Positions 1 to 24,449 of a stretch of 64,000 bases of DNA are shown here, piece after piece; within the stretch, counting starts at the first letter, position 1; each line of letters opens with the position of its first letter. Source of the DNA: Naegleria gruberi. Lineage: Eukaryota. Under the pieces are notes generated by a model that made no database searches, was not told the DNA's origin, and saw nothing but the letters and a program-made list of their open reading frames with translations. Where the stretch lies: assembly GCA_000004985.1 (NCBI GenBank), contig GG738873.1. One strand, 5' to 3'. Both the position numbers and the translations under genes were made by a program.

Positions 1-1255
1 GCAATGACAACAATACTTCCAATCTTGACACTACTTGCACTTGAAACAGTTCCTGATGCAGATTTATCCTCAGCACCTATTTACATTCAATTTTCAATAT
101 CAATTTTCATATTGATTTCAACAATGTTAAATATTAATATTAATTATTATACTTACCAAGAGAAGGATCCCAATTCAAATTATCAACTCTTTCAGTCAAT
201 GAAGCATAAAATCTAACAACACTTGCAAATGTTAAATCCTTCTTCAATGCACTTGTTGCAGCATTAAGTGAAAAATCAGATTTCAAAGCAGTTGTCACCA
301 ATTGACTCTTTGTAATTCCAGCACTCAATGTACTATATTTGGAAACAAAGGTTTGGAATGACAAGTATGGATTTGGTAATTCAAAACCGTCTGGCAAATT
401 CCATGAAGAGAAGAAACTTGTCTGATTGAATTGAATGACTTTTTGATCTGATGTGGCTGTGTCTGGTCTTTCTTCAGCCAAAATGTTTCTTGCACGTGGT
501 TTCTCAAAGATTGCACCTCTGAATGCAACCAAAGTGCTGATACCTAACTTGGAATTGGCATTGGAATATTTAATTCCAGTGATTTCTAATGAAGATTTGA
601 AAGATGAAGGGACCAAAACTTGAGTGACAGTTCTACTGACAAGTGTCTTGGATTCAAATGAAACTTCATTAGTAGTAATGAATCCAGTGAATGTAACTGT
701 ACAGAAATTAGGAATATCAACACTTGAAACAGCCTTATACACAGCAGCACTTCCATCACTTGTCAAATCTGTCTTGGTTACAGAAATAACCTTCCATGAC
801 AATCCAACAAGTGAATACTCCTTAACAATTGAATCAGCAGTATTTGGTTGATAACCAGGAGTACCATCATTATCCAAATACTCAAAAATCGAATCAAAAC
901 CAAAAGCAACACCAGTATCAATATTAATTGTCAATGGAGCCAACTTGTTTCCTAATTGAATTTTGAAACCAGCACTTGCTGCCATTTTAATCATTGGCAA
1001 TGTAGCAACTGATGCCTCGAACTTTAAGCCAGTGAAAGTGGACAAGGATGCCTTGGTAGTGACATTGAAATCACATGTGGTTCCTGAAGTAAATGTCACT
1101 TGATTGGCTGGAGTAGAGTATTGAACATTTCTCTTACATGAGAGTGAAGTTTGACGGAATTTGAGAGAAATCTCATCCAAAGCATGGATGAACGGTAAAA
1201 GTGAAAACACCAAGCAGAGTGTTAACAAGATATTTTTACAGATATAAAGTTTCAT
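1..1255 (-). CDS. Secreted protein of unknown function with an N-terminal signal peptide. Two exons, join(1..76,157..1255); the 3' end runs off the window.
   Basis: 371-aa ORF starting MKLYICKNILLTLCLVFSLLPFIHA (hydrophobic signal-like N-terminus), with an A-run before the ATG on the minus strand. The apparent stop at 140 lies inside a GGTAAGTAT donor, and an acceptor (aaatag at 77-78) restores the frame, which then stays open to position 1. Confidence 0.5.
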
Positions 1256-1527
1256 TTTTTTTTTGATAAGTTTTGGTCAATTGTGATTTGGAAGACGTTG
1301 AAATTTGAAGATCTCAAGAATAGTGTGACAGGTTGGAAATTTGCGCTTATAAAATCGGTAGATAAGTGAAATTCCTTGAGTTTCGAATGCAGAGTTGGAG
1401 AGTTTGAAAAGTTTATTCTATAACGAGATGTGATAATGTTAATTTTCCTTGAGTTTACAATGAGGGGTATTGTTGGAAGGCTTTTTTGTAGTATCGAGGA
1501 GATCCGGTTTGTCCAGAATATTCGAAA

Positions 1528-4159: not shown

Positions 4160-4232
4160 GCCCGTCTAGCTCAGTCGGTAGAGCGCAAGGCTCTTAACCT
4201 TGTGGTCGTGGGTTCGACCCCCACGGTGGGCG
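4160..4232 (+). tRNA. tRNA-Lys (anticodon CTT)
   Basis: The 73-nt sequence GCCCGTCTAGCTCAGTCGGTAGAGCGCAAGGCTCTTAACCTTGTGGTCGTGGGTTCGACCCCCACGGTGGGCG has a canonical cloverleaf with anticodon loop CTCTTAA. It is near-identical in layout to eukaryotic tRNA-Lys-CTT. Confidence 0.9.
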
Positions 4233-9618: not shown

Positions 9619-9671
9619 TAATTTTAATGGTTTGTAAACTTGGAGATTGAACTGACAGTTTGTTAAAAAAA

Positions 9672-12600
9672 ATGATAATTGACCAACACCAAACTGCACC
9701 TCGTTGGATTTGCAACAAGTGCCAAGGATTCATCGATAGGGGAACAATCCGATACGTCAATACTGATGAAAAGGACTTTGACTTGTGTGAAAATTGTTAT
9801 CACTGGTGTTGGGAACAGTATCAGAAGAGAAAGCAACATAATACAAATTCACAATTTAATTCTCTTGATGATGATGGTGATGATGATGTTGGGAATAACA
9901 CGGAAAATAACAAAATATTGGACATGTTCTGTAGGGATTTGGAATTTATTGTACCAACCAAGTATCACTATTCTGAAATGAAAGGACGAATTAAAAGTTC
10001 CGATCGGTTTAATAGTTCTCTGTTTAGATCATTTGTTGAATATTCACTCAATCCTTGCTTTGGATTGTTGAAACAAGATGATGGTCCCTATCATTTTCAA
10101 ACCTATGAACAGGTATTTCATTTGATTTGTTGCATCAGTATTGGATTAGATCAGATTTTGAAACCATTAATACGAGTGGGAAAGAGACAATTTGTATCAA
10201 TATGTGGAAAGAATAATTTGTATTGGTATTTGAGTGATTATGCTTGTTTCTTTAGGGGGTTTGTGATTGCCCCCATTCATTTTGCTCAATCATTTGAGGA
10301 GACGAAATATTGCATTGAACTGACAGAGAGTCAAGTTGCTATTTGTACTGAAGAAATGTTAGATTTATTCATTAGAATTACCAAAGAGTTGGATATTGTG
10401 AAATATATTATTGTAATGGATGATACAGAATCAAAATCAAGAGGAAAATTTACCAATCAAAGAGGAACACAAGAAATTGAAATTATTCCAATGAATGACA
10501 TTATTGACGCTGGAAAATCAATATTGTGTGAATATTTGAATGAAAAGAACAAACCAAGAACGAATCCATATCCAGAACATTATGAAAATCACGAGACAAT
10601 CCTTGTGACTCCACCTCAGGACAAGTACGATCCTAGAAAGATGTGGATTGGAGTGGAACATGAAGAATTTATTCTAAATAGGTTGGATAATGAGGAGGAT
10701 CTAGTGACTCTTGTTTTCACAAGTGGATCCACTGGTATTCCAAAAGGAATCATGATGAGTGATAGAGCTTTGAGAAAGGAAGTACTCAGTTTAAGGATAA
10801 AAGATCCTAAAGTTCGTTTCTCTTTTTGTCCACTCGCTCACATGAGTGATAGAAAATACACCCTATTGGCCATGTGTAATGGAGCCAGAGTTGGAATATT
10901 TACTAGAGAATTTGTTCACATCTTTGAGGATATTCAAAACTGCAAACCAGTTGTAATTGCATCCACTCCAAGATTATTCAATGTGCTGTACGATGAGTTT
11001 AAGAAAGTAGTCGAATTGGAAAGAATTCGTTGGCTTTCTTCCACTGAAACTGGGAAACCAAAAACTGAGAAGGAACTTGAGGAAAGAACCATGCTTGACT
11101 TTCAATACATGCTTGGTGGGCGTGTTCAATCAATTATTCTTGGAGGGGCTTCTTCTAGCCCACAATTAAGAGAATTTTTGGCAAAATGTTTCCAGTGTAA
11201 AGTAACAGATGGTTTTGGAATGTCTGAAGCTGGAGGAATTATGAATAACAATCGACTCAACACTAATGTCGAATACAAGTTGATTGATGTTCCTGAATTG
11301 AGCTATTTCACAACAGACAAACCTTATCCGAGAGGAGAACTTTGTGTCAAGACAAATTACATGTTTATTGGATATTATAAGAATGAAGAGCTCACTAATA
11401 ATGCACTGGATGAAAATGGATGGTTACACACCAACGATATTGTTGAAGAATTAGGACCAAATCAAATCAGAATTATTGACAGACTGAAGAATATTTTCAA
11501 ATTGAGTCAGGGTGAATTCATAGCACCTGCCAAGATTGAAGATGCTCTCACTACCTCTAAATTTATTTTCCAAGCTTTTATTTATGGCAATGTGACAAAG
11601 AGCTACTTGGTTGGTGTCATTGTTCCCAACAAAACAGTTTTAAAACAGTTTGCAATTAAGGAAGGAATTATCAAACCATCAGCCGATCACCATCTCCTAA
11701 ATGAAGAAGAGAAAGAAGTATTGGCAAATAATGAGCTGATCAAGAAAGCTCTATGTGAAGAGATTGAGAAAGTTGCTGTAAATTGTTCACTTTTGTCTTA
11801 CGAAGTTCCAAAAGATTTTATCATTGAATTTGAACCTTTTAGTGAGAAAAATGATTTACTAACCTCCTCTATGAAGGTTAAGAGATTTGGATGTGAAATG
11901 AAATATAAGGAACAATTGGAGACACTCTATGAGCATGTAGATAGAAATTACAAGAGAAAGTTGGACGAAGATTTGATTCGTGAATTGTTAGTGAACTCCT
12001 CATCAGGCTCAGAGGAATCTGCAGATGGAAATATGAAAATTATTGACAGTCTTCATGCAGTTAAATTTTCTGGAATTATGAAACAAAAATTCAACATTGA
12101 CATTCCACTTTCATTGATATTTTCTCAAACGGATAGGAATGTGGAAAGTGTAGTGAGTAGAGTTTCAAACTTTGTCACAAAAGGCCAAACTAATCAGCAA
12201 TCGTATGACTGGAAAAAGGATATTCTCTTACCACAAGAACTTCTCGATGAAATTACTGACATTACTTCAAAAGGAAAGCAGAAATTCAATAAGATATCAA
12301 ACCTAAAGAAGGGTATTCTTCTGACTGGCTCAACTGGATTTTTAGGTGCCTTCCTATTGAGAGATTTATTGGAGAATTTACAAACAGCTCAGGAGCATGT
12401 GAAAATCTATTGTTTGATAAGAGAAAAGAATCAGCAACACAGTTTATTCACTAGATTGAAGAAACATCTTGTAAAATTCAATATCTGGAAAGATACTTAT
12501 GAAAGGAGAATATCTGTCATTAGGGGAAATTTACAGGATGAGAATTTAGGTCTCTCTCATGAGGAATTCAACAAATTGGCTGGAGATGTTGACATTATTT

Positions 12601-13604
12601 ACCACAATGGAGCATATGTCAACTCAGTCATGTCGTACTCTCAATTATTCTCTTCCAATGCTGGATCTACGTACTATTTATTGAAACTTGCTTGCCTGTC
12701 ATCAAAATTGAATATCCAAAATGATGGAGATTCCTTAACACCAATTATTCTCGTTTCAACTGTTGGTGTTGTACAATCTGCGTTGTCAGAATTTGATCTA
12801 CCAACCAGAAAATCTCAAGTTAATGATAACCCTCAGGAAACTAAAGAAATGATTAGCAATCATGTCGATCAAGTCATTGGTCAACTGAAACCAATTATTG
12901 AAAAAGCAGCTGGGTATAACAGCACCAAATTTATTGCAGAACAATACATTCAACAAGCAAGGTTATTGGGATATCCCGGTGCCATCTTTAGACCAGGAAT
13001 GATTGGAAGTGATACTGAGAATGGAGTTTCGAATTTAGAGGACTGGGTCAATAGGTTGATTCTGGGATGTTTCGAATTGGGTTGCTTCCCACAAACCAAA
13101 AAATCTCTCAATGTCATTCCTGTGGATATTATTTCAAGAGTGATTGTGGAATTGACACAGAATGAGAATGTATTCATTGGTACTTTACAATCCAATCCAA
13201 ACTATTTGATTTATGAGGTGGCTAATCTTTCTCAATATGAAATTCAAATTGATAATTTACTTGGCATCGCTGCCACAACTCTAGCGAAATTGCTAAACAA
13301 GAAACCAATGGAAATGGTTAGCTACACTAAGTGGAAACAAATACTGAATGAGAGAACATCAACCGAAGAAAACGAAATGTTATTGATTTTGAAAACTCTC
13401 TTCAAATCAGATACGGAATTTCTAAAAAGCATAAACAAACTCCAAGACAACCACATTCAGAAAATCATTGAAGTTCTTTCTAGATCAGAAAGCATACAGT
13501 GCAGAGAATTAGTTCCTAACAAAAATCTAAACCAAAACTATCTTGAAAAACAAGCTCTATACCTAGTCCAGAGTCTCAAGAAGAAATTGGGCGAAAATTT
13601 ATAA
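9672..13604 (+). CDS. ZZ-type zinc finger, long-chain acyl-CoA-synthetase-type adenylation domain, phosphopantetheine carrier (PCP) domain and NAD(P)-dependent thioester reductase domain (about 1,310 aa)
   Basis: Uninterrupted ORF; the first ATG at 9672 has an A-run before it. The ZZ finger is CNKCQGFIDRGTIRYVNTDEKDFDLCENCYHWCWEQY. AMP-binding motifs are LVFTSGSTGIPKG, GYYKNEELT..GWLHTNDI, IIDRLKNIFKLSQGEFIAPAKIE and LLTSSMKVKR (ACSL-type). The carrier motif is GNMKIIDSLHAVKF...IDIPLSLIF (DSL serine). The reductase domain has LLTGSTGFLGAFLL (Rossmann fold) and GYNSTKFIAEQ (YxxxK). Confidence 0.85.
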   Translation: MIIDQHQTAPRWICNKCQGFIDRGTIRYVNTDEKDFDLCENCYHWCWEQYQKRKQHNTNSQFNSLDDDGDDDVGNNTENNKILDMFCRDLEFIVPTKYHYSEMKGRIKSSDRFNSSLFRSFVEYSLNPCFGLLKQDDGPYHFQTYEQVFHLICCISIGLDQILKPLIRVGKRQFVSICGKNNLYWYLSDYACFFRGFVIAPIHFAQSFEETKYCIELTESQVAICTEEMLDLFIRITKELDIVKYIIVMDDTESKSRGKFTNQRGTQEIEIIPMNDIIDAGKSILCEYLNEKNKPRTNPYPEHYENHETILVTPPQDKYDPRKMWIGVEHEEFILNRLDNEEDLVTLVFTSGSTGIPKGIMMSDRALRKEVLSLRIKDPKVRFSFCPLAHMSDRKYTLLAMCNGARVGIFTREFVHIFEDIQNCKPVVIASTPRLFNVLYDEFKKVVELERIRWLSSTETGKPKTEKELEERTMLDFQYMLGGRVQSIILGGASSSPQLREFLAKCFQCKVTDGFGMSEAGGIMNNNRLNTNVEYKLIDVPELSYFTTDKPYPRGELCVKTNYMFIGYYKNEELTNNALDENGWLHTNDIVEELGPNQIRIIDRLKNIFKLSQGEFIAPAKIEDALTTSKFIFQAFIYGNVTKSYLVGVIVPNKTVLKQFAIKEGIIKPSADHHLLNEEEKEVLANNELIKKALCEEIEKVAVNCSLLSYEVPKDFIIEFEPFSEKNDLLTSSMKVKRFGCEMKYKEQLETLYEHVDRNYKRKLDEDLIRELLVNSSSGSEESADGNMKIIDSLHAVKFSGIMKQKFNIDIPLSLIFSQTDRNVESVVSRVSNFVTKGQTNQQSYDWKKDILLPQELLDEITDITSKGKQKFNKISNLKKGILLTGSTGFLGAFLLRDLLENLQTAQEHVKIYCLIREKNQQHSLFTRLKKHLVKFNIWKDTYERRISVIRGNLQDENLGLSHEEFNKLAGDVDIIYHNGAYVNSVMSYSQLFSSNAGSTYYLLKLACLSSKLNIQNDGDSLTPIILVSTVGVVQSALSEFDLPTRKSQVNDNPQETKEMISNHVDQVIGQLKPIIEKAAGYNSTKFIAEQYIQQARLLGYPGAIFRPGMIGSDTENGVSNLEDWVNRLILGCFELGCFPQTKKSLNVIPVDIISRVIVELTQNENVFIGTLQSNPNYLIYEVANLSQYEIQIDNLLGIAATTLAKLLNKKPMEMVSYTKWKQILNERTSTEENEMLLILKTLFKSDTEFLKSINKLQDNHIQKIIEVLSRSESIQCRELVPNKNLNQNYLEKQALYLVQSLKKKLGENL

Positions 13605-14261
13605 AGTTTTAAGAAAAGATAAAGTTGCAATATGTCTGAGTTTTCTGGATTTTCAAAAAGTGAAATATTCCGAATGTTAAATTGAAATACTTATTACCAG
13701 GTTAGCTAGCCATAAAATTTGTCATCATACATGCTCGGAATTTGACAAATACTCAATTTTACTCTGATTGAGATTTCTTTGTGCAATGATTTTTCAATTA
13801 ATTAAAAGAGTTAGGTGGCTCCTAATCTGACGGTTTGTGCAATGTCTGATTGAAACCAAATCAAAGTGAGCAATTAAGCTCAAACCCTGATCCCTACAAA
13901 AAATTGAGTTAATAGTAGATGCAACCCGTGAGCTGCTTTCAGCTATTAAACTGAAAAGAAAAGATACTACACTCGATCAAAGCCAATTGGCCGAGAAAGA
14001 TGGTTTTGAGAATTGCATAAGGAACAGAGTATTTATTCTGTTGGTTGTGGAGTGAAGAATGGCAAAATGTTTGTGGTATTTTAATAAATTTTAATGCCTT
14101 GTTCGACTATTGATATTGAACATGTAGCGAATCTTAATAATCAATATTTATGATGGAGCAGTTCAATCAGAACTTGGAAAGAATGTGAGAAGCAAACTTG
14201 ACTAACAATTAAGGGGGATGCATTGATAAGTAAAACGTGAACTAGTGAAAAAAACAAATAA

Positions 14262-14268
14262 ACAAAAA
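14262..14268 (-). terminator. Pol III oligo-T terminator directly after 5S copy 1
   Basis: The minus strand reads TCTTTTTGTTTATTTG immediately 3' of the 5S end. Confidence 0.5.
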
Positions 14269-14390
14269 GACTACAGCACCACAGGTTCCCAAGTTGTCTC
14301 CAACCTCAGTACTGATGTGGCTCGACGATGCTTAACTTCTCAAATAGGACGGGATGAGGTGTATTCATCGTGATATGGCCGTAGCCATAC
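14269..14390 (-). rRNA. 5S ribosomal RNA gene (copy 1)
   Basis: The minus strand reads GTATGGCTACGGCCATATCACGATGAATACACCTCATCCCGTCCTATTTGAGAAGTTAAGCATCGTCGAGCCACATCAGTACTGAGGTTGGAGACAACTTGGGAACCTGTGGTGCTGTAGTC. It is about 122 nt, has the conserved 5S blocks (CTACGGCCATA, CCCGTC, GAAGTTAAGCA, AGTACT, GGTGCTGTAG) and is followed by a T-run. Confidence 0.85.
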
Positions 14391-14502
14391 ATACTAATAA
14401 AATATGAAATAAATGAATTCACAATAATGACATTTCAAAATCCTTACTTCGTTTCTTAACCTTAGTAAGAAACAATCATTCATTATTCTCATTAATGGAT
14501 TA

Positions 14503-16110
14503 TTAAAATTTAATAATAATTTTCTTATGTTGACTCTTATCATATTTGGTAATAGTAAAACAATTAAATTGTTTCAAATTGATTGTTAACCATTCGTAAA
14601 ATTCTTTAAATTGACAATTATTGGAATCATAATCACCATACAATTCCACTATCAAAGTGGTCAATTTTGCCAACTTGCATACCTCCTTTCTAAACTTATC
14701 TCCAAAAATGTATTCCCACTCAATTTGATTTACTTTGAGAGTTGTCAAACTGGTTAACAACCCCAAGTTTAAAAACCTAAATTTCACTCTCGACAGTCCA
14801 GGATAAGTTGGTATCGTAAACTCAAAATATTCCAATTTCTCAAGCTTTGAAAGATGAATTAATGGAATGCAATCTGAGAATGTCAAAGATTTGAGTTCAG
14901 GGAAACCTTGAATCATTTGAAAATCATCTAACAAAAGAGTTTGTAGTTTCACTCTGCTCAGAGTTTTAGAATTTGATAATTGAATTATGGATTCCATATC
15001 AGATCTGTTAGTATCAATGATTAATGTTTTCAATTTTGGAAATTCAGAAAGAGAGGCACATACATCAACCATGGAATCATTATGGTTATCATGTTTGGCA
15101 TCCAGAATTTGTAGTGTTGTTAAATTTTTCAATTGTTTCAAACTGTCTGCTTTTTCCAAAGTCAATCCTCCATAAAAACTTAAATATTCTAAATTGGGGA
15201 AATGCTGAATATTGTCTAAGGTACTCCCACATTCATATTTACTCCTCAATTCCAATTTAGTGCATTTATCATAAATTTGATCAAGTTTAATTTTATCCAT
15301 ACCAAAACAAAAGATATCCACCAGTCTTAAATGTTCCACATTAGGAAATAATTTTAAAATAGGTTTCAATAATTCTAGATTTCTTGGCACATCCTCAAAA
15401 TTTACAACCTTGATAGAATTAAAAAGATCTTGATTCCTCTTTGATTTTGCTGATAATTTCTCAATCTTGTGGCAATATGCATTCACGAACTTTTGTTCAA
15501 TTTTTCTTTCCTTAGTTAACTTGGATCTATCAAAGCTATCACCATCACAAACTTCACACTTTTTCTGAAATATCAGCTTTTTATCCGAAATTTTAGTAAT
15601 TTGATTCAACAGTTGAGTTTCCCAATATGGAATATTAGAACTATTCAAACTTTTCATTTTCCATAACAAAAATTTAACTCTCGCCATATTGGAATTCTTC
15701 CTACACTCATTAACAAGTCCAAATTTAAATATAAATTTAATTCTTCCATCGGAGAGAAATCTTCCAAACCAATCCTTAATAAACAATTTCCAATCAATTA
15801 CAGATTCATCATTAAACTCATCAATACAAAGCGTCGAATTAATTATTACATTCCCACAAAATTCCAAAATATACAAGACACAATCGGAGGGAAGCCTAGC
15901 AAATTGTGAGGCAATACAACGAGAAGCAGAAACAGAAACAGAATTTGATGATCGCCTTATTCCGTCTTGTCGTTTAATCAATGCTGCGGAAGGAGTAGAA
16001 ACATGCCGTTTCGAAGTGATCCTATATGATGATGTTTTAATTGGTGATGAATTGGAAATATTCATAGTCGTGGTTGTATGACTGTTCATTCCTTCTTTAA
16101 AAGATTTCAT
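14503..16110 (-). CDS. F-box-like / leucine-rich-repeat protein (535 aa)
   Basis: Single ORF with an A-run before the ATG. It has an F-box-like LPSDCVLYILEFCG near residue 75. The C-terminal two thirds carry LRR-like periodic L..L..L..N/C motifs (LKNLTTLQILD, LKSLTFSDC, LTSLTTLKVN). Confidence 0.7.
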   Translation of the reverse strand: MKSFKEGMNSHTTTTMNISNSSPIKTSSYRITSKRHVSTPSAALIKRQDGIRRSSNSVSVSASRCIASQFARLPSDCVLYILEFCGNVIINSTLCIDEFNDESVIDWKLFIKDWFGRFLSDGRIKFIFKFGLVNECRKNSNMARVKFLLWKMKSLNSSNIPYWETQLLNQITKISDKKLIFQKKCEVCDGDSFDRSKLTKERKIEQKFVNAYCHKIEKLSAKSKRNQDLFNSIKVVNFEDVPRNLELLKPILKLFPNVEHLRLVDIFCFGMDKIKLDQIYDKCTKLELRSKYECGSTLDNIQHFPNLEYLSFYGGLTLEKADSLKQLKNLTTLQILDAKHDNHNDSMVDVCASLSEFPKLKTLIIDTNRSDMESIIQLSNSKTLSRVKLQTLLLDDFQMIQGFPELKSLTFSDCIPLIHLSKLEKLEYFEFTIPTYPGLSRVKFRFLNLGLLTSLTTLKVNQIEWEYIFGDKFRKEVCKLAKLTTLIVELYGDYDSNNCQFKEFYEWLTINLKQFNCFTITKYDKSQHKKIIIKF

Positions 16111-16215
16111 TTTTTTTATTAAAAAGAAATTACATAATTAATTCAAGTTTTATATTTCTCATGTACTTTACAATTAATTTGGAGTGATAGAATTAGTCCA
16201 GATAGAATGAGTCAA

Positions 16216-17590
16216 TTAAGCAAGTTGTTTGAAGAATCTGTTCCACATTGCCTCATTTGCCTTTTCTAAATCAATTTTTTTATCATCTTCTTCATCTTCT
16301 TCTTCCTCATCTTCCTCGTCTTCATCTTCTGCAAAATTGGAATTATTTGAAAGACCTCTACACTTGTGCAGTGGTTTCTTTTTAGCACGAAATAAATTAG
16401 GTTCGTTTCGGTCGATATATTGGTCTGCTGCCTCAGATAATGAGACTACTTTACAAAATCTATTCGTGTTCTCTATCAAATTGGAAATACTCTTTGAATT
16501 TTTAAATGGTAAAACGTTTAAACTTCCATTATTGGTGGAAACTTTTACAAAATCAAAGAATTTTTCAGACTTGTTGTAAATTGAAATTTCAACTTGTGAA
16601 AAATCTGTTGGATCATCTGGTTCGGAAGCATCATCTTTTGAAGTGCAAATATATTGATGAGTCAATTGGGGTTTGAATATTAAGGGAAGGGATGGCTCAG
16701 TATTAGAAATCATCTTACAAATAGAATGAATGAAATCTCTCAAAATAATGGGATCCTTTTCGATTGAAATAATAATATCATCATCATAGATCCATCCATC
16801 ATAATTTCTAATTTTGGATTTGAATATTGAGGTTTCTTTGGAATTGAGCTGGACGACTTGTCGAATAATAAAATCGTCATAGTTTCCTCCAGGTTGACGT
16901 CTAGAGTTTCATCTCAGTAATCATAAAAAAATATGAAACTTACTCTAATACTTTAAAATCAATTATCATCTTGATATCAAGAGAATCTTTGAATTGTTTC
17001 AATTCAGGTGACAGCTTTTCACTCAGTAATAAGCTCAATCTTGGTTCAATTCTCTTTCTTTTGAAATATTCCACAAATTGATTAGAACTCAAGAGTGTTA
17101 TAATGAGTTTTTCGTAATGAAAATCAAACTGTTTACAAGTTACTGCCAAATTGACCATCGAAGAACCATCTAAAAATTCACACACATGTGAAAATTCATC
17201 AAAATTCAATTTCAAACCACATTTTCCACTCAATTGAATTTCCTCACATTGTGCTCTAACAACTTTGTTTCTTTCAAAGAATCGATGCAACACTGTTTCA
17301 TATTGATCATGATATTTTCTTACCTCATCCTCCTCAAAGTAATTCCATTCTGTGTAAATATCACCACACAAACCGAAAAAGTAGTACCTAGAAGGATCTG
17401 CAGTGTCAGAAACCTCCGATGCTTCAAGTTGTAATATTTCATCAATTTGATCATCATTTAATTTGTGGCCATATTCGAGAAGGGCTTTTCTAAAATAGAG
17501 GTAGAATGGAGTGAGAGGAACTACGTGTCCATTGATGATGATTGGAGTCGGCTCGGTTAATGTTACGAGAGTACGTTTACGTCTTGCCAT
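16216..17590 (-). CDS. Hypothetical protein (about 443 aa) with an acidic D/E tail. Two exons, join(16216..16900,16944..17590).
   Basis: ATG at 17590 follows an A-run. The stop of the upstream 216-aa ORF lies inside a GA|GTAAGT donor. A 43-nt intron (acceptor ctctag) joins it in frame to an open frame (RQPGGNYDDFII...) that has no ATG of its own and runs into the 16216-16743 ORF. The C-terminus is DEDEEDEEEEDEEDD. Confidence 0.6.
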
Positions 17591-17753
17591 TTTTTTTAAT
17601 AAACTTTACAATGACAGTGAAAATCTAGCAAAAAAAGAAAGTTCTCTTTAATGATCAATTCCGATAATATTCTATATTTTCATAACATCAAGAAAACCAT
17701 CTAATCTACCTAATATCTTAAAAATATAATATGAGAGTTTATTTATCTCTGGC

Positions 17754-19243
17754 TCATTCTTTTAAAACCCAATTTGAAAGAATATCTGGATCTACAGTAA
17801 GCAAATCATCAACAATTTCTCCTGCCACCACTTTTTTGAAATATGGAATGGAAGTGACTTTACATTCTCTGAAAATGTCCAACATTTCATCATTATCCAG
17901 TTTGTAAAATTTGAACTTTGAATTCAAATTGGACAATTTTCCAAATTGTGGAGAAACCATTTTACAAGGGCCCTAATTAGATTTGTACACAATTTAGAAT
18001 AACTACTTACACACCAGGTTGCTGTAAAATAAATAATTGCATTTTCTTTTGAAGAGAAAATAGCCCTAAAATCCTTTTCTTCTGTTATTGGAACTGCCTT
18101 ACCCATGATTTTCGTTTCCAAGTCCAATTTTAATGTTATCAATTCATTAGATTCTCTCAATTGTCCAACAAGTGTCATGACTTTCTCAATAGATCCTTCC
18201 TCAATATTTAATTCAATGCTATTTGATAATGTATTGACAAAATCAATGCATGATTCTGTTCCCTCTCCTTCTAAGCTCGTTATAAGTTCTCTCACCGATG
18301 CAACAATCTTTCTTGATTGTAATTTTGAAGAGTAGAATTTATCAAACTCCCTACATGGTTCTATATACTTGTCTATTGGGAAATTATTGGCACAATTCAA
18401 ATGCAAGAATGTGAGTAGCTCTTCAGTTAAAACCTCTTCTCCACACGATAATAATTGTCTTTTTAAGGTTGAATCTGATCGAGACAACCGAAGAACTGGA
18501 ATATAAGGAAGATTAAATTCATCTGACATATCATTCTTTTCAATGTCCATGCAAAGAATTTGAATTTTCTCTCCACCTTCTTCAAGTAGTTGAGCCACAA
18601 ATTCTATTACTGGAAATAAATCATCACAAGGCTCACAATTATTAATATAATTGACAACTAACACATCCATACTTGATTTCCAAACCAATTCATCATATGC
18701 AGAGTGAACCAATTTCTTCAAACTCTTCCAACCTTCAAGTTGATCGTTTAGAGATCTCTTCTCGCTCTTGTAAAATACCTTCTCCTCTCCAGATCTGATT
18801 CTATCAAGCCAACCCAATATTGGTTCAATCTCAAAAGTACCTCTATACAAAAACTTGAACACTCTCTTTGAAAAATATCTATACAATAAGAGTGCTGGTT
18901 CGAGAAGTTCAGAAATACCAAAACACTCTGGTAGATTATCCGACTCACTCAGAGGAGCATTAATCCAAACAATATCAACAACATTGGTTTCTTGGGTATC
19001 CTCATCCAACAACAATTCCATGGAGAATAATTTCCTTTGAGTGGCCTCATCTTCCGATTGTAGGATGGTTTCAATTTTTGAAAGGAAATCTTGTTCTGTT
19101 CCCTTATTAAAACAATACATTACACATCTACCATCCAATCTGGCTGCTTCTGGCGAAGAAATGGAAATCAATTTGGACATTTTTTTGAGTGAACTTTTTC
19201 TCCTTGATAATCCATTTATGAAAAATGTTCTTCCTGTTTTCAT
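17754..19243 (-). CDS. Thioredoxin-domain protein with an internal CEPC thioredoxin-like domain and a C-terminal WCGPC thioredoxin domain. join(17754..17972,18011..19243).
   Basis: The 439-aa ORF ends ...IIYFTATWC at a GTAAGT donor. A 38-nt intron (17973-18010, acceptor ctaattag) joins it to the 68-aa ORF as GPCKMVSPQ..., rebuilding the canonical WCGPCK active site. The downstream sequence (IPYFKKVVAGEIVD) fits a thioredoxin fold. An earlier NNCEPCDDLFPVIEF segment is a second CxxC thioredoxin-like motif. Confidence 0.75.
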
Positions 19244-19260
19244 TCAAAATGGTGTTTAAA

Positions 19261-19269
19261 AGATGAAAA
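19261..19269 (-). terminator. Pol III oligo-T terminator after 5S copy 2
   Basis: The minus strand reads TCTTTTCATCTTTT immediately 3' of the 5S end. Confidence 0.45.
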
Positions 19270-19391
19270 GACTACAGCACCACAGGTTCCCAAGTTGTCT
19301 CCAACCTCAGTACTGATGTGGCTCGACGATGCTTAACTTCTCAAATCGGACGGGATGAGGTGCATGAATCGTGATATGGCCGTAGCCATTC
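19270..19391 (-). rRNA. 5S ribosomal RNA gene (copy 2)
   Basis: Same 122-nt sequence as copy 1 with about 6 substitutions, followed by a T-run. It sits 27 nt from the ATG of the thioredoxin-domain gene. Confidence 0.85.
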
Positions 19392-20720
19392 ATAATATTA
19401 ACACCATCCTTATCAAAATCCTTACTATATGAATTCGGTAATCATCCATTCGAAGCCATGTTGCAATATTCATGATCAAAGAACATTCATTGTATAATCC
19501 ATCAGAAAGGTAACACCTAGTAAAAGTGTCTACAGTATTTGTTAGAACCGCTACTGTAGATGATTTCTGACAGAAATAGCAACCATTTTTGTGATGCTTG
19601 GAACATTCCGAACAAACAAGGATTATCGCATGAAGCTTCCTCTTTTATCGCAATCAGTTGGTTCTATATTCACTAGCGTAACTCTCAATTTCTTGAACCT
19701 TTCTCAACAAAGTCCTTCATCTCCGATAGATTCTGTGATGATTTTTCAACATTCCCATTGAGGGTTTCATTTGTTACTAAGGGAAATAGTTAATTTGCTG
19801 AACCATCCACTTTGCAACCCACACATCACAACAACAGTAAGGAAAATTGCACATTCAAAACAGTGCCCTCAATTGACTTCAAGTGGACCGTTTGAAAGCA
19901 TCCTGCAAGACATAACATGGCCATGACCAAATTAATAACTTACCATTATGAAGGGAGTTTTTAGATAACGCCCACAAATAATCAGCTACAGTAAAGGAGA
20001 AAAACTGTAGTTTGAATATTATCAAGGAAGTAAATAAACGTGTTCTCCTTGCTTGAATGATCAATATGTTAATATATTCGATATGGAGGAAGGATGATTA
20101 TGATTCACTTCTACACAGAATGTTTCAAACTTTCCATTTATAAAGCAGGCATCAACATTCAATGTTGATATTTTCATAAGCAACCATTTCATCACAACAT
20201 CACATTATCCGGTAAAGTTTCAATGCCATCATGAGTTGCATCAAACATGAGCCTTCAAAATAGTGAAGGTTGCACTTTTGGCGCTTGATTTTTTTTGCAT
20301 TGTTGTTGCGTTGTTGCTCACATCAGCACATTCCAAGCTTCAAAGATGATTCAAAACGAAAACAACCTCCGAAAGCAAAAAAAAATCGGTTATATTGTAT
20401 TTGAAAAGCTGCTTTTCTCATATCCGATAATATTTTAGTGTCTTTTTGATTGTCGTCGAGACGAGTATTAGTAATTTTTAATAGCTACTACTACTTCTTT
20501 TGCTTTATCGGCTTGACACAATCTTCTTCCGTTCAACTTTGAATATCGGGTTTTATTTGGTTTTTTTTGTAGGAGGACTTGGATTGACTACTTTTTGGTG
20601 ATTGATACTATTGATAATAACATATATTGATACGACTACAACTTTTTTCAATACTACTTATTACTCGCCAGATATATTCACCTAAAAATAGTTGTCATCT
20701 TTATTAATAGATTAAAAGAA

Positions 20721-23700
20721 ATGCTACCATCATATCTTGCCAACTCTCCTGCCAGTGAAAATAACCAAGAAACTAATGTGGAATTCAATGAACAACACTC
20801 TCTAAAGAGAAAGAAAGAAGAAATAGACAAGGAATTGAAAGCTTGGGAGATTTTTGATGAAGTTAACAAGTACAAAGATGAACCATCTTTCAAGAAGGCC
20901 AAAAAAGCACTCAACCAGACTGAATGTTGTCCTGCAGGTCGTAACTTGATTGATAATGTCTTTATGCAAGATTGTGAATCATCTGATAATGATTCTTCCT
21001 CAGATGATGACCAAAGTAATGGTGCTTATAAGAAATCATGTTTAGGATTGTACAAGAGTGCAATTCCAAGCAAGGCATCCTGTATTATGGATACTTCTGA
21101 AGAATTACCATCAATCATTATCCCAGCTAGAAGAAGAAGAAAGAGTGCCAATACAAATAGTCCAACTTCACCAACTATTCCATCAAACGTTACTAATGAA
21201 CAAGTAACAACATTGGCTAATGTTTCTTCTGCACGTTCTGCAAAGAAATGGAACTCTTTCGAAATGATGCCTCACGGTATTTTGGTATTCATAATGTCAT
21301 ACATTTCTCAACCAATGATCATTCATGCAATGATGGCTGTTTGTAAGAGATGGTACCAAATCTCCAAGTTCAGTACACTTTGGAAGAGAATTGATTTTAA
21401 TGGTTCATTCAAGATCAAATCAATGAGTGATGTTGTTGGTTTCCTCGAAGACTTTACCACTTTAAAGATTTCTGACATGAGAAAGACCTATGCATTAGGT
21501 TCTACTGTGCTCATGGAATCTTTGGGAGGATTAGGTCAAAAGGAAGTTATTTACAATGTCCAACAATATGAATATGGTCTTTCTCTCCAAAAACAAGAAC
21601 AATTAGGTATCTATAAGAATGGTGGAGTTTTACTCCCACCAAAGAAATCCAGAATGCCTCACCTTTTTGGTGAAATCATTTTACCTGCTTCTTGTTCAAA
21701 CCTCTCTGTTGAAACTTTTGAAAAGTTGAAAGAGGTTTATCCATCCTTGTCTAAATTGGTTCTTCCAATGTGTTCTACAATTTCCACAGTTTCTAATACT
21801 GGTGCATTTCCTATCAATGCTGATAACAATTCCAGAATTCAATTCAATACTGAAGACATTGAAAACAGTATTTCTGATTCTGTACTATTGCAAATTGCCA
21901 AGATGCCATATTTGAGCTATCTTAAAGTATCTACTCATCACAAGTTAACTGATCAAGGTTTGAATGAATTTTCCATTCTTTCAAAGAGACTTGAATCCAT
22001 TGAACTTGACTATTGTTTGGGTTTGACTCAGCAATCACTCTTGCATCTTGTAAAGAATAGCAAACATATTAACACTATTAGTGCTCTCAGCAATGGAAAC
22101 ATTGTTTTGGGAGATCAAGAACTTGTAGAATTATCCCAATATGGTTCTCATTTAAAAGAATTGAGAATTGATGTTTCAAATATTTCTCTTCCATCCTTCG
22201 CTACCTTTATTAAGGGTTGCAGAAGACTCCAAACTTTATTTATTAGAGGTCTTGATTGTATTACTGATAAGACCCTCGATGTTATCTTTGCCGAGCTCCG
22301 TTACATTCGTAATATTACAATTATTTGTGAGAGCCCTGAGAAGACTGCTACAAACAAAATCTTCTCTACAACAATTTCTAGCACCACCTTAGAATCCTTC
22401 CAAATTACTGGTTGTGAGACTTTGAACATTTCCTTTGATCATTGCACCAACTTGAAGAAAGTATCTATTGACCAATGCAAGAGCTTGACTGGTCTTCAAA
22501 TTTCTAACTCCTTACTTGTTGATGAACTAAAATTCAGAAGTAGTAACATTGCATATGTGAACCTTTCACAATTGATAAATTCATTGCCAAAGTTGAGAGA
22601 GTTTGAACTCTTTGATTGCCAATCAGGAGAAACAAACAAGACTGTTACTTTCAATTCTGATATTATGAGAAAGATTATTATTCTCATGTGTAACGACATT
22701 ATCAACCTTGAAGTTTTATGTAGTAATCTTAGATCTATGAGCGTTGATTTGTGTGCCAACATTGAAAAGTTGATTCTCAAGAGTCCAAAGTTGGAAAATT
22801 TACAAATGTTTGCTCTTCCTCAATCAGCTACTCCAAAGCTCAAACATTTATTTGTTGAAAGTGATCATATCCAATCTTTGAACTTGCAAAAGATTCTCTC
22901 ACTCGAACAAATTGCAGTCAAGTGCAAGTCTTTGGATTCACTCAATGTTTCCAACCTTCATCAACTCAGAAGATTGGAAACTGGACCATGTCCAAAGCTT
23001 GAAAAGTTAGCCCTAGGAAGTGTCTTCCTCTTATTTGATGATCATCTTGTATCCAATATTATTAGCAAGTGTCCAAATATTAGTATGTTGAGCATTTCCA
23101 ATAGTGTATCATTGAATGATGTATCACTTGGAGTTTTGTGCAACAATTTGCCAAACCTTCAAGCTCTTGTCATTTCCAATTGCCAACGTTTGTGGAATGT
23201 CAACATTCAATCATCTGTACTTAAAGGTATCCAAATCTCAGATTGTCATCTCCTCAAGTATTTAAACTTGAAGAGTGAAAATCTTAACAAGTTATTCATT
23301 AGAAATTGTCCAAATGTTGAAGATTCTACATTTGATAACCTCTCTGCCTTCAGTCCAAATATCAAGTTTGTAGAGTTGGTTAATTGTAGTATGCTCAAGT
23401 CACCACATCTCAAGCTTCCACAACTTGTCGATCTCCATTTCAGAGAATGTGCCCAATTAGAAGTTCCAACCATTACTTCTGAATATTTGAAAAAGTTGTT
23501 GATTGTTTCTTGCACAAAGTTTTCTCACTTTAATGCTCAATCAGCAACCCTCTCTGAAATTTTACTCTCTGAATGTCCAAACTTGAACGAAGCTAATCTT
23601 ACAAAGAGTCTTTCCCAAACCGAAAACATTCAAGCTATTGTTTTCGATAAGTGTAAGGCCCTTAGAGCTCCTCAATTGAATCTTGATAACCTCAAGCTCG

Positions 23701-24449
23701 TTAGATTTACCTCATGTAATAATCTTGTCAATCCAAAGATTAATATTAGAGGTAATTTGTCTGTTCTCTCCTTCCAACATTGTGATAACATCAAGATTGA
23801 AAAGTTGAGCACCAACATTACTGGACAAAATATTGATAATATTGAAATTACTGAATGCAAGGGAATGACCAAACTCTCTTGTGATTTACCAACTAAGAGT
23901 TTGAGTGTTAGTGGATGTTCCAAACTTTCCTCTCTCACTCTTTCTCAAACCATTCAAACAATCCTTGTTGAAAAATGTCAAGCTCTCTGTACTATTCAAT
24001 GCCCACAAGAATGCCGTGTGACTGAGCTTAAAGTTAAGGATTGTGAACAATTCTCCTCTGTTCAATTTAGTGGACCAAATCAAGATATGAAGATTCTTGG
24101 ATTTTCAAGATGCCCACGTTTATCTGATATGTGTTTAGCATCCATGTTAAGCAAGTGCCAAACTCTTGAAAAGGCAAGATTAAGTGCTTGCGGTCTTGCT
24201 CGTCCATTTATTAATCATGCCAATTTATCTACTTTACATATTTCTCATTGTCAATACTTGGAAAGAATGAGATTAAAATGTCCAAAGCTTATTACCCTCA
24301 AACTCAATGATTGTCAAGCTTTAAATTCTGTTGTATTTGCTGAAGCTTCACCTGAGCTTAAGAATGTAACATTGAAAGGGCTTTCTGTCTGTGCATCTGA
24401 TAGAGAACTTTTGATGAGATGTTCCAACTCTAGTGTTGCCTCACAATAA
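20721..24449 (+). CDS. F-box / leucine-rich-repeat (FBXL-type) protein, 1,242 aa
   Basis: Uninterrupted ORF. A canonical F-box (MMPHGILVFIMSYISQPMIIHAMMAVCKRWYQISKFSTLWKRIDF) is followed by more than 25 cysteine-containing LRRs (C..L..L.L..C..ITD). Confidence 0.85.
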   Translation: MLPSYLANSPASENNQETNVEFNEQHSLKRKKEEIDKELKAWEIFDEVNKYKDEPSFKKAKKALNQTECCPAGRNLIDNVFMQDCESSDNDSSSDDDQSNGAYKKSCLGLYKSAIPSKASCIMDTSEELPSIIIPARRRRKSANTNSPTSPTIPSNVTNEQVTTLANVSSARSAKKWNSFEMMPHGILVFIMSYISQPMIIHAMMAVCKRWYQISKFSTLWKRIDFNGSFKIKSMSDVVGFLEDFTTLKISDMRKTYALGSTVLMESLGGLGQKEVIYNVQQYEYGLSLQKQEQLGIYKNGGVLLPPKKSRMPHLFGEIILPASCSNLSVETFEKLKEVYPSLSKLVLPMCSTISTVSNTGAFPINADNNSRIQFNTEDIENSISDSVLLQIAKMPYLSYLKVSTHHKLTDQGLNEFSILSKRLESIELDYCLGLTQQSLLHLVKNSKHINTISALSNGNIVLGDQELVELSQYGSHLKELRIDVSNISLPSFATFIKGCRRLQTLFIRGLDCITDKTLDVIFAELRYIRNITIICESPEKTATNKIFSTTISSTTLESFQITGCETLNISFDHCTNLKKVSIDQCKSLTGLQISNSLLVDELKFRSSNIAYVNLSQLINSLPKLREFELFDCQSGETNKTVTFNSDIMRKIIILMCNDIINLEVLCSNLRSMSVDLCANIEKLILKSPKLENLQMFALPQSATPKLKHLFVESDHIQSLNLQKILSLEQIAVKCKSLDSLNVSNLHQLRRLETGPCPKLEKLALGSVFLLFDDHLVSNIISKCPNISMLSISNSVSLNDVSLGVLCNNLPNLQALVISNCQRLWNVNIQSSVLKGIQISDCHLLKYLNLKSENLNKLFIRNCPNVEDSTFDNLSAFSPNIKFVELVNCSMLKSPHLKLPQLVDLHFRECAQLEVPTITSEYLKKLLIVSCTKFSHFNAQSATLSEILLSECPNLNEANLTKSLSQTENIQAIVFDKCKALRAPQLNLDNLKLVRFTSCNNLVNPKINIRGNLSVLSFQHCDNIKIEKLSTNITGQNIDNIEITECKGMTKLSCDLPTKSLSVSGCSKLSSLTLSQTIQTILVEKCQALCTIQCPQECRVTELKVKDCEQFSSVQFSGPNQDMKILGFSRCPRLSDMCLASMLSKCQTLEKARLSACGLARPFINHANLSTLHISHCQYLERMRLKCPKLITLKLNDCQALNSVVFAEASPELKNVTLKGLSVCASDRELLMRCSNSSVASQ

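Follow-up and report, generated by a model that had tools for sequence, protein, structure and literature searches.

Two dispersed 5S rRNA genes in a Naegleria gruberi contig and a short word shared by their upstream flanks

Two genes for 5S ribosomal RNA (rRNA) lie on the same strand and 5 kb apart among the protein-coding genes of a stretch of 64,000 nucleotides (nt) from Naegleria gruberi (NCBI GenBank assembly GCA_000004985.1, contig GG738873.1), which is referred to here as the window. Both loci are bona fide 5S rRNA genes, full length and structurally sound, and they very probably belong, as unremarkable copies, to the nuclear family of dispersed 5S rRNA genes in a Naegleria of the N. 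gruberi group. Each is preceded, on its own strand, by the same 14-nt word, AGTAAGGATTTTGA; this shared word is real and unlikely to be due to chance, and near-copies in front of other genes are suggestive of an enrichment of the motif upstream of RNA polymerase III (Pol III) genes. The 5S genes themselves add little, as this type of dispersal has been described before, in Naegleria, in several fungi, and in other protists. What is of use is a testable candidate, namely a sense-strand word of 12-14 nt located at variable distance upstream of Pol III genes. Pol III promoters have hardly been characterised in Heterolobosea.

Identity and Structure of the Two 5S rRNA Genes

The whole window was scanned with the Rfam covariance models at the gathering thresholds, and the scan was repeated at E ≤ 0.1. 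At the gathering thresholds, four RNA genes were found: the two 5S rRNA genes, a U2 small nuclear RNA (snRNA) gene, and a tRNA-Lys(CTT) gene. Copy 1 (14268-14386, minus strand) and copy 2 (19269-19387, minus strand) are each 119 nt long and match RF00001 (gathering score 38) over model positions 1-120 with 98.2 and 100.3 bits, respectively. The initial annotation of this DNA, made by inspection of the letters, had proposed two 5S genes in the same orientation about 5 kb apart, which is borne out; the intervals that it gave (14269-14390 and 19270-19391) point to the right genes, with ends that are off by 1-4 nt. The two copies differ at 4 of 119 positions (21, 22, 25, and 41), which corresponds to an identity of 96.6% and agrees with the previous estimate of about 95% over slightly longer intervals.

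Variation between the window copies is mainly found in loop B, as positions 21, 22, and 25 lie at or beside it and position 41 lies in loop C. Copy 1 has the GAAUAC form of loop B and copy 2 the UUCAUGC form, and the forms GAAAGC and GAAUGC occur elsewhere. In addition, copy 1 has U for G at position 41 (G41U). In copy 2, helix II loses its last pair through G21U, and this is the one broken pair of the copy in the pair table. That table was derived from six Naegleria-type 5S sequences (the two window copies and four metagenome loci, L004, L006, L007, and L008), in which a canonical 5S fold with 39 predicted pairs is present. The fold is confirmed by L008, which contributes all four of the positions that are doubly changed and yet still paired.

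Reading of the sequence past the 3′ ends shows an oligo-T terminator of Pol III type at each gene, as had been annotated: T5 at copy 1 (14264-14268, minus strand) and T4 at copy 2 (19266-19269, minus strand), each including the terminal U of the 5S sequence. A run of at least four T also follows the 3′ end directly in L004, L006, L007, and L008. Within the genes, segments resembling box A and box C can be predicted. The box A-like segment of copy 1 (5S positions 50-64, AGTTAAGCATCGTCG; 14323-14337, minus strand) is an exact match to the box A pattern of PMC3369914, and the same positions of copy 2 (19324-19338, minus strand) match the pattern as well; the box C-like segment, at 5S positions 80-97 of copy 1 (14290-14307, minus strand) and at 19291-19308 (minus strand) in copy 2, has two mismatches in either copy. 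The intermediate-element pattern at +67-72 was found in neither 5S gene, the patterns being loose and the sites predicted only.

The repeated block comprises only 136 nt (14265-14400 and 19266-19401, with a spacing of 5001), and the flanks outside it do not align between the two loci. No 18S, 5.8S, or 28S rRNA gene and no further 5S gene or fragment was detected in the 64-kb window at the gathering score or at E ≤ 0.1. The copies occur singly among protein-coding genes, with four sizeable open reading frames (ORFs) between them, two of which have Pfam domains, and are not part of an rDNA unit or a head-to-tail repeat, so that the dispersed arrangement described in the initial annotation holds. 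Because homology is confined to the transcribed unit and about 15 nt, the two copies are to be seen as separate insertions or old duplicates rather than as a tandem array.

A 14-nt Word Shared by the Upstream Flanks

The word AGTAAGGATTTTGA occurs in exact form at 14435-14448 (minus strand), that is, at -62 to -49 relative to copy 1, and at 19413-19426 (minus strand), at -39 to -26 relative to copy 2; both the motif and its variable distance had been pointed out in the initial annotation. These are its only two exact matches in the 64-kb window when both strands are searched (128 kb), and each of the only two 5S genes has one of them within 65 nt of its 5′ end, upstream and on its own strand. 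In flanks of 150 nt, the longest word common to the two copies is 14 nt upstream and 8 nt downstream. The probability of a common word of at least 14 nt is 2.5e-4 for random pairs of window segments and 7.5e-4 for first-order Markov resamples. Matches with at most one edit to the 11-nt core elsewhere in the window are nearly all located inside long ORFs and appear chance-like.

The sequence on either side of the 14-mer cannot be aligned between the copies; had a duplicated flank decayed neutrally, such a perfect island would not be expected. Of the 16 nt directly upstream of +1, about 12 also match between the copies. The distance of the motif to +1 differs by 23 nt, which argues against a positioned element of the type of the TATA box or the proximal sequence element (PSE). 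A partial second copy of the motif, TAAGGAT, is present at -25 to -19, right after the 14-mer of copy 2.

A perfect 8-bp hairpin at 14451-14473 (minus strand; GTTTCTTA, loop CTAAGGT, TAAGAAAC) was also observed 2 nt upstream of the copy 1 motif. It lies in the 3′ region of the neighbouring gene for a leucine-rich repeat (LRR) protein and has no counterpart at copy 2.

Occurrence of the Motif Upstream of Further Pol III Genes

Further Naegleria-type 5S genes were taken from metagenome contigs. L004 was the sole Naegleria-type locus obtained by a metagenome scan with a 5S-internal 23-mer, and L006, L007, and L008 were found via spurious ORFs over 5S genes, with the translated open antisense frame of the 5S gene as the query. 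The translation of the sense frame, used as a protein query, gave no match. A scan of genome contigs for a 5S-internal word gave one match, in a flavobacterium (L005), which is about the chance expectation for a 20-mer in 596 Gb, and a corresponding scan of viral contigs gave none. The 5S genes of L004 and L006 have the highest Rfam scores (105-106 bits), in that of L007 an extra 2 nt are inserted into loop C, and that of L008 is more divergent. As only 2 nt of upstream sequence are present in L006, the 5S upstream flanks examined were five in number (the two in the window and those of L004, L007, and L008).

The minimum edit distance of the 12-mer core TAAGGATTTTGA was determined in the 100 nt upstream of each gene, and 6000 random 100-nt segments of Naegleria DNA served as the null. 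For enrichment at other copies, the outcome is mixed. Upstream of the L007 5S gene, there is a clear match with one edit, TAAGATTTTGA, whose end is at -10 (null P 0.002-0.0045), and a near-copy with one edit, TAAGGCTTTTGA, ends at -63 of a tRNA-Glu gene of the same contig (209-280; null P for at most one edit, 0.002). The match upstream of the L004 5S gene is weak (AAGGATTCCTGA, 11-nt core, two edits, ending at -39; null P 0.08), and none is present upstream of the L008 5S gene. Matches with at most one edit were thus obtained in two of seven further, independent flanks (three 5S, three tRNA, and one U2), for which, at about 0.002 per flank, the probability is of the order of 1e-4. Every good instance has the same sense as the Pol III gene that follows it, and none of six downstream flanks contains a match.

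L007 (ENA ERZ929261 metagenome contig, 1-1354) carries tRNA-Met, 5S, and tRNA-Glu genes on one strand, and a second tRNA-Glu gene and a partial tRNA gene on the other. The second tRNA-Glu gene (tRNA-Glu_b, 1255-1328, plus strand) was left out of the test, as this 1354-nt contig provides only 26 nt upstream of it. The tRNA-Met gene, which lies upstream of the 5S gene, ends in a T6 terminator of its own. In addition, a direct repeat of 45 nt (ccggtcaaattgattttgttggctaagaatcaaattcgag) was noticed at about 945-985 and 1035-1075 of this contig.

With regard to the position of the motif, no fixed distance to the transcription start, as would hold for an element of the TATA or PSE type, was found; the spread of its distances, -10 to -63, rules out a role of either kind in positioning the start site. 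AT-rich, TATA-like stretches separate from the motif are present at about -30 to -15 of copy 1, L004, L008, and the tRNA-Glu gene of L007. A GAATTCAT word shared by some of the upstream flanks was dismissed, because about 45% of random segment pairs share an 8-mer.

Proposed Mechanism and Alternative Explanations

From established knowledge of 5S genes, each of the two genes would be an independent Pol III unit, with a start of transcription that coincides, or nearly so, with the 5′ end of the mature RNA. Box A at +50-64 and the box C-like segment at +80-97, which form the internal control region, would be the main directors of transcription and recruit the initiation factors, AT-rich or TATA-like upstream DNA would help via TFIIIB, and transcription would terminate at the T4-T5 run directly after the gene. 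The pattern of homology suggests that selection on the RNA, perhaps aided by gene conversion, has kept the copies similar, rather than homogenisation of an array. In this scheme, AGTAAGGATTTTGA with its core TAAGGATTTTGA may represent a short sequence under selection near Pol III genes of this lineage and, to judge from a handful of loci, a position-flexible binding site of an auxiliary factor rather than an element that fixes the start. Such a selected auxiliary site is a tentative reading, with a probability somewhat below even. It is possible, if rather doubtful, that, in the N. gruberi group, TAAGGATTTTGA is an undescribed position-flexible cis element of Pol III genes, both 5S and some tRNA genes, and could bind a lineage-specific factor that aids recruitment of TFIIIB or Pol III without a recognised TFIIIA. 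Should enrichment be found genome-wide, the motif would provide a handle on how 5S genes are recognised without a known TFIIIA (PMC3369914) and a sequence tag for the design of Pol III expression cassettes in Naegleria.

Several observations weigh against the picture of two ordinary, active genes with a selected upstream site. No copy of the motif precedes the 5S gene of L008, the U2 gene, the tRNA-Lys gene of the window (best match, 4 edits), or the tRNA-Met gene of L007; a single contig of 1.35 kb (L007) is the source of both good independent matches; and the motif was defined after the fact. Its end varies widely in position (-48, -25, -10, -63, and perhaps -39), and the TATA box is the only upstream element reported for N. 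gruberi 5S genes (PMC3369914). In addition, we infer the activity of either copy from its sequence. Compared with L004 and L006, which have the commonest Naegleria-type sequence, copy 1 is changed by G41U and copy 2 by G21U, so that weak or silent variants are conceivable at one locus or at both.

The shared word could have no function at all and be the relic of a duplicated segment that included upstream DNA, or of a short gene-conversion tract. For the window pair taken alone, this is plausible: the copies are 5 kb apart in the same orientation and 96.6% identical, the match of about 12 of 16 nt upstream of +1 implies that some of the flank was co-inherited or co-selected, and an offset of 23 nt is easily made by an indel. 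A relic fits poorly, however, with a 14-mer that is perfect amid unalignable sequence, where neutral decay should leave scattered matches, and with the near-copies at the unrelated 5S locus and at the tRNA-Glu gene of L007, the latter of which cannot stem from a 5S duplication; a functionless relic is possible but unlikely. Coincidence in AT-rich intergenic DNA is barely credible, even though the DNA has a G+C content of 34%, the motif was picked after looking at the flanks, and the window count of 5 at up to two mismatches was reached in 4 of 100 shuffles. It would have to produce a common word of a length that is rare in 150-nt pairs (see the probabilities above), place its only two exact copies in 128 kb just upstream of 5S genes on the sense strand, and account for the independent near-matches in L007.

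It is also conceivable that the motif is a 5′ splice site with adjoining intron sequence (A/GTAAGG...), in which case copy 2 would lie inside the first intron of the thioredoxin-domain gene next to it, with Pol II transcribing the host gene. GTAAG fits the donor consensus, a confirmed intron of the window starts with CA/GTAAGTTGG, and a mini-exon can be drawn (ATGGATGATTACCGAATTCATATAG/GTAAGG...5S...AAAACAG/GAAGAAC; motif at 19413-19426, acceptor region at 19233-19243, minus strand) that is in frame with the 439-aa ORF. Agreement of the frame is, however, a 1-in-3 event, and the ATG of the mini-exon is without the A-rich start context that is found at the ATG at 19180. Copy 1 is followed by the U2 gene and then a convergent gene rather than by a downstream exon, the L007 motif is located between Pol III genes with no ORF nearby, and a donor site accounts for at most 6 of the 14 shared bases, all of which makes a splice site very improbable. 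Homologues of the thioredoxin-domain protein among protein representatives have at most 27% identity and are too divergent for a comparison of N-termini.

The remaining alternative concerns the genes rather than the motif: at least one of the two window copies could be a 5S pseudogene, or a variant that is silent, in a family of many members. Each copy has 3 differences from L004 and 1-3 from L006, whose scores are higher; G41U gives a non-standard pair in the Rfam alignment and G21U breaks a pair of helix II; and many divergent or truncated copies exist among the 279 of N. gruberi (PMC3369914). On the other hand, both copies are full length, retain box A, the box C-like segment, and the T-run terminator, and score far above the Rfam threshold, and loop B, at or beside which three of the four differences between the copies fall, varies among other loci too (GAAAGC, GAAUGC). 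Pseudogenes or silent variants are an improbable, though not negligible, explanation of the two loci.

Comparison with Known 5S Systems

Dispersed 5S families also occur in Neurospora and Schizosaccharomyces pombe, and a TATA-like box is located at about -30 of the 5S genes in N. crassa, S. pombe, and Arabidopsis. The 14-mer has in common with these boxes that it is short, conserved, and placed 5′ of a gene with an internal promoter; unlike them, whose distance from +1 is fixed, it occurs at variable distance (ends at -48 and -25 in the window, and at -10 and -63 in L007) and is not TATA-like in sequence.

In N. gruberi NEG-M, 279 putative 5S genes outside the rDNA unit were identified by a BLASTn search; they have an internal control region and an upstream TATA box, and TFIIIA was not detected (PMC3369914). 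Table S1 of that report places copies on most scaffolds, with many loose pairs or triplets 1.7-10 kb apart, such as scaffold_81 50274/52665, scaffold_12 420559/422722, scaffold_13 175088/177056, and scaffold_7 543593/545993/551533 (PMC3369914). The arrangement is called 'tandem' there, whereas the coordinates of the same report show dispersion (PMC3369914). According to this map, two same-strand copies 5 kb apart among protein genes are the normal Naegleria pattern. The window genes resemble those of NEG-M in their location outside the extrachromosomal rDNA, their occurrence as a loose pair, their length (about 117-120 nt), the internal control region, the AT-rich or TATA-like upstream DNA, and the T-run terminators; in contrast, an upstream motif besides the TATA box and a linkage to U2, both seen here, are unreported in that account (PMC3369914). 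The initial annotation had considered the two loci informative about Pol III promoter structure and genome organisation. The dispersal itself is confirmed but is not new for Naegleria, having been published for N. gruberi (PMC3369914), and the 14-mer is a candidate rather than an established Pol III promoter element.

Yarrowia is similar to the present case in that many single 5S genes lie among protein genes as independent Pol III units and show microheterogeneity between copies (PMC2566860). It differs in that 48 of 108 copies are fused 4-17 nt (mostly 4-5) behind tRNA genes and are transcribed independently of TFIIIA (PMC2566860). Unlike these fusions, neither window copy has a tRNA gene directly upstream. 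A tRNA-5S dicistron of the Yarrowia type was ruled out, as no tRNA gene directly precedes the 5S genes and the L007 tRNA gene has its own terminator.

Gene Neighbourhood of the Two Copies

The window has a G+C content of about 34% and densely packed long ORFs with few introns. Copy 1 and the U2 gene share one gap of about 900 nt between two convergent genes. One of them is the LRR gene (14503-16110, minus strand), a 535-aa ORF with a Pfam LRR_14 match and an A-rich context before the start codon; its stop codon (14503) is separated by 116 nt from the start of copy 1, and the initial annotation had given 112 nt beyond a gene's 3′ end. The other is a carboxylic-acid-reductase-like (CAR-like) gene (9660-13604, plus strand), which encodes a protein of about 1310-1314 aa with an AMP-binding domain and a terminal reductase domain (NAD_binding_4).

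Copy 2 is located in a 1.5-kb ORF-poor gap between the divergent thioredoxin-domain and F-box/LRR genes. The thioredoxin-domain gene (17924-19243, minus strand), a 439-aa ORF with a Pfam Thioredoxin match, adjoins copy 2 downstream, and the F-box/LRR gene (20721-24449, plus strand) was recognised as an ORF with a domain match. The gap (19244-20720) contains no ORF of more than 61 aa and no Rfam match other than 5S copy 2, and it is unusually long for a gene-dense window. The end of copy 2 is followed after 25 nt by an ATG at 19243. In at least 15 of 23 long ORFs, a run of five to nine A directly precedes the ATG (e.g., 16111-16120, 17591-17600, and 19181-19190); the ATG at 19243 has the context cattttgaATG without such a run, and the ATG at 19180 has one (ctcaaaaaaATG). 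The latter is probably the true start of the thioredoxin-domain gene, which would place copy 2 about 88 nt upstream of the start codon. The ATG that the initial annotation had reported 27 nt from copy 2 is indeed nearby, at 25 nt by count, but probably not the real start.

Two further origins of the arrangement were rejected. A tandem array or segmental duplication is ruled out by the unalignable flanks. A mobile element carrying 5S is unsupported, as homology does not go past the gene, nothing like a target-site duplication can be seen, and the DNA separating the motif from the gene lacks conservation.

No 5S, U2, or tRNA gene was found around the CAR-like orthologue in N. lovaniensis (L001), in another Naegleria (L002, Logan assembly), or in Willaertia magna (L003). 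The placement of the 5S genes is therefore lineage-specific and not conserved across the genus, as expected of a family with turnover. The CAR-like protein of the window is 71% identical to that of N. gruberi, 52% to a Naegleria-like Logan-assembly protein, 50% to that of N. lovaniensis, and 44% to that of Willaertia magna. Together with the general style of the genome, this one protein is the basis for placing the window in the N. gruberi group. Outside Heterolobosea, its relatives in a protein search are mostly FadD9/CAR proteins of actinobacteria and cyanobacteria, with a few from amoebozoans and sponges, and an old gene transfer is possible. The tRNA-Lys(CTT) gene of the window (4160-4232, plus strand) was found by both Rfam and ARAGORN and has a TTTT terminator 7 nt downstream.

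The Adjacent U2 snRNA Gene

The U2 snRNA gene (13810-14003, minus strand; RF00004, 109 bits at a gathering score of 46, model positions 1-192) lies downstream of copy 1, on its strand and at a distance of 264 nt, and was absent from the initial annotation. Both the branch-point-binding sequence GUGUAGUA and the Sm site AAUUUUUUG are present, and TTTT is found at 13804-13807, just past the 3′ end. A TATA-like word, AATAAATA, was observed about 30 nt upstream of the gene. In trypanosomatids, U2 is a Pol III product, and the TTTT tail and the TATA-like upstream word raise the question of whether U2 may be one here as well.

Copy 2 has no U2 neighbour. In another member of Discoba, Diplonema papillatum, 5S is likewise found beside U2, in a unit of spliced leader (SL) RNA, 5S rRNA, and U2 snRNA; there the unit, SL RNA included, is repeated in tandem with as many as 27 copies, whereas a single 5S-U2 pair is present here (PMC10161547). 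The adjacency of 5S and U2 in the window is a small extra data point on the linkage of small-RNA genes in Discoba.

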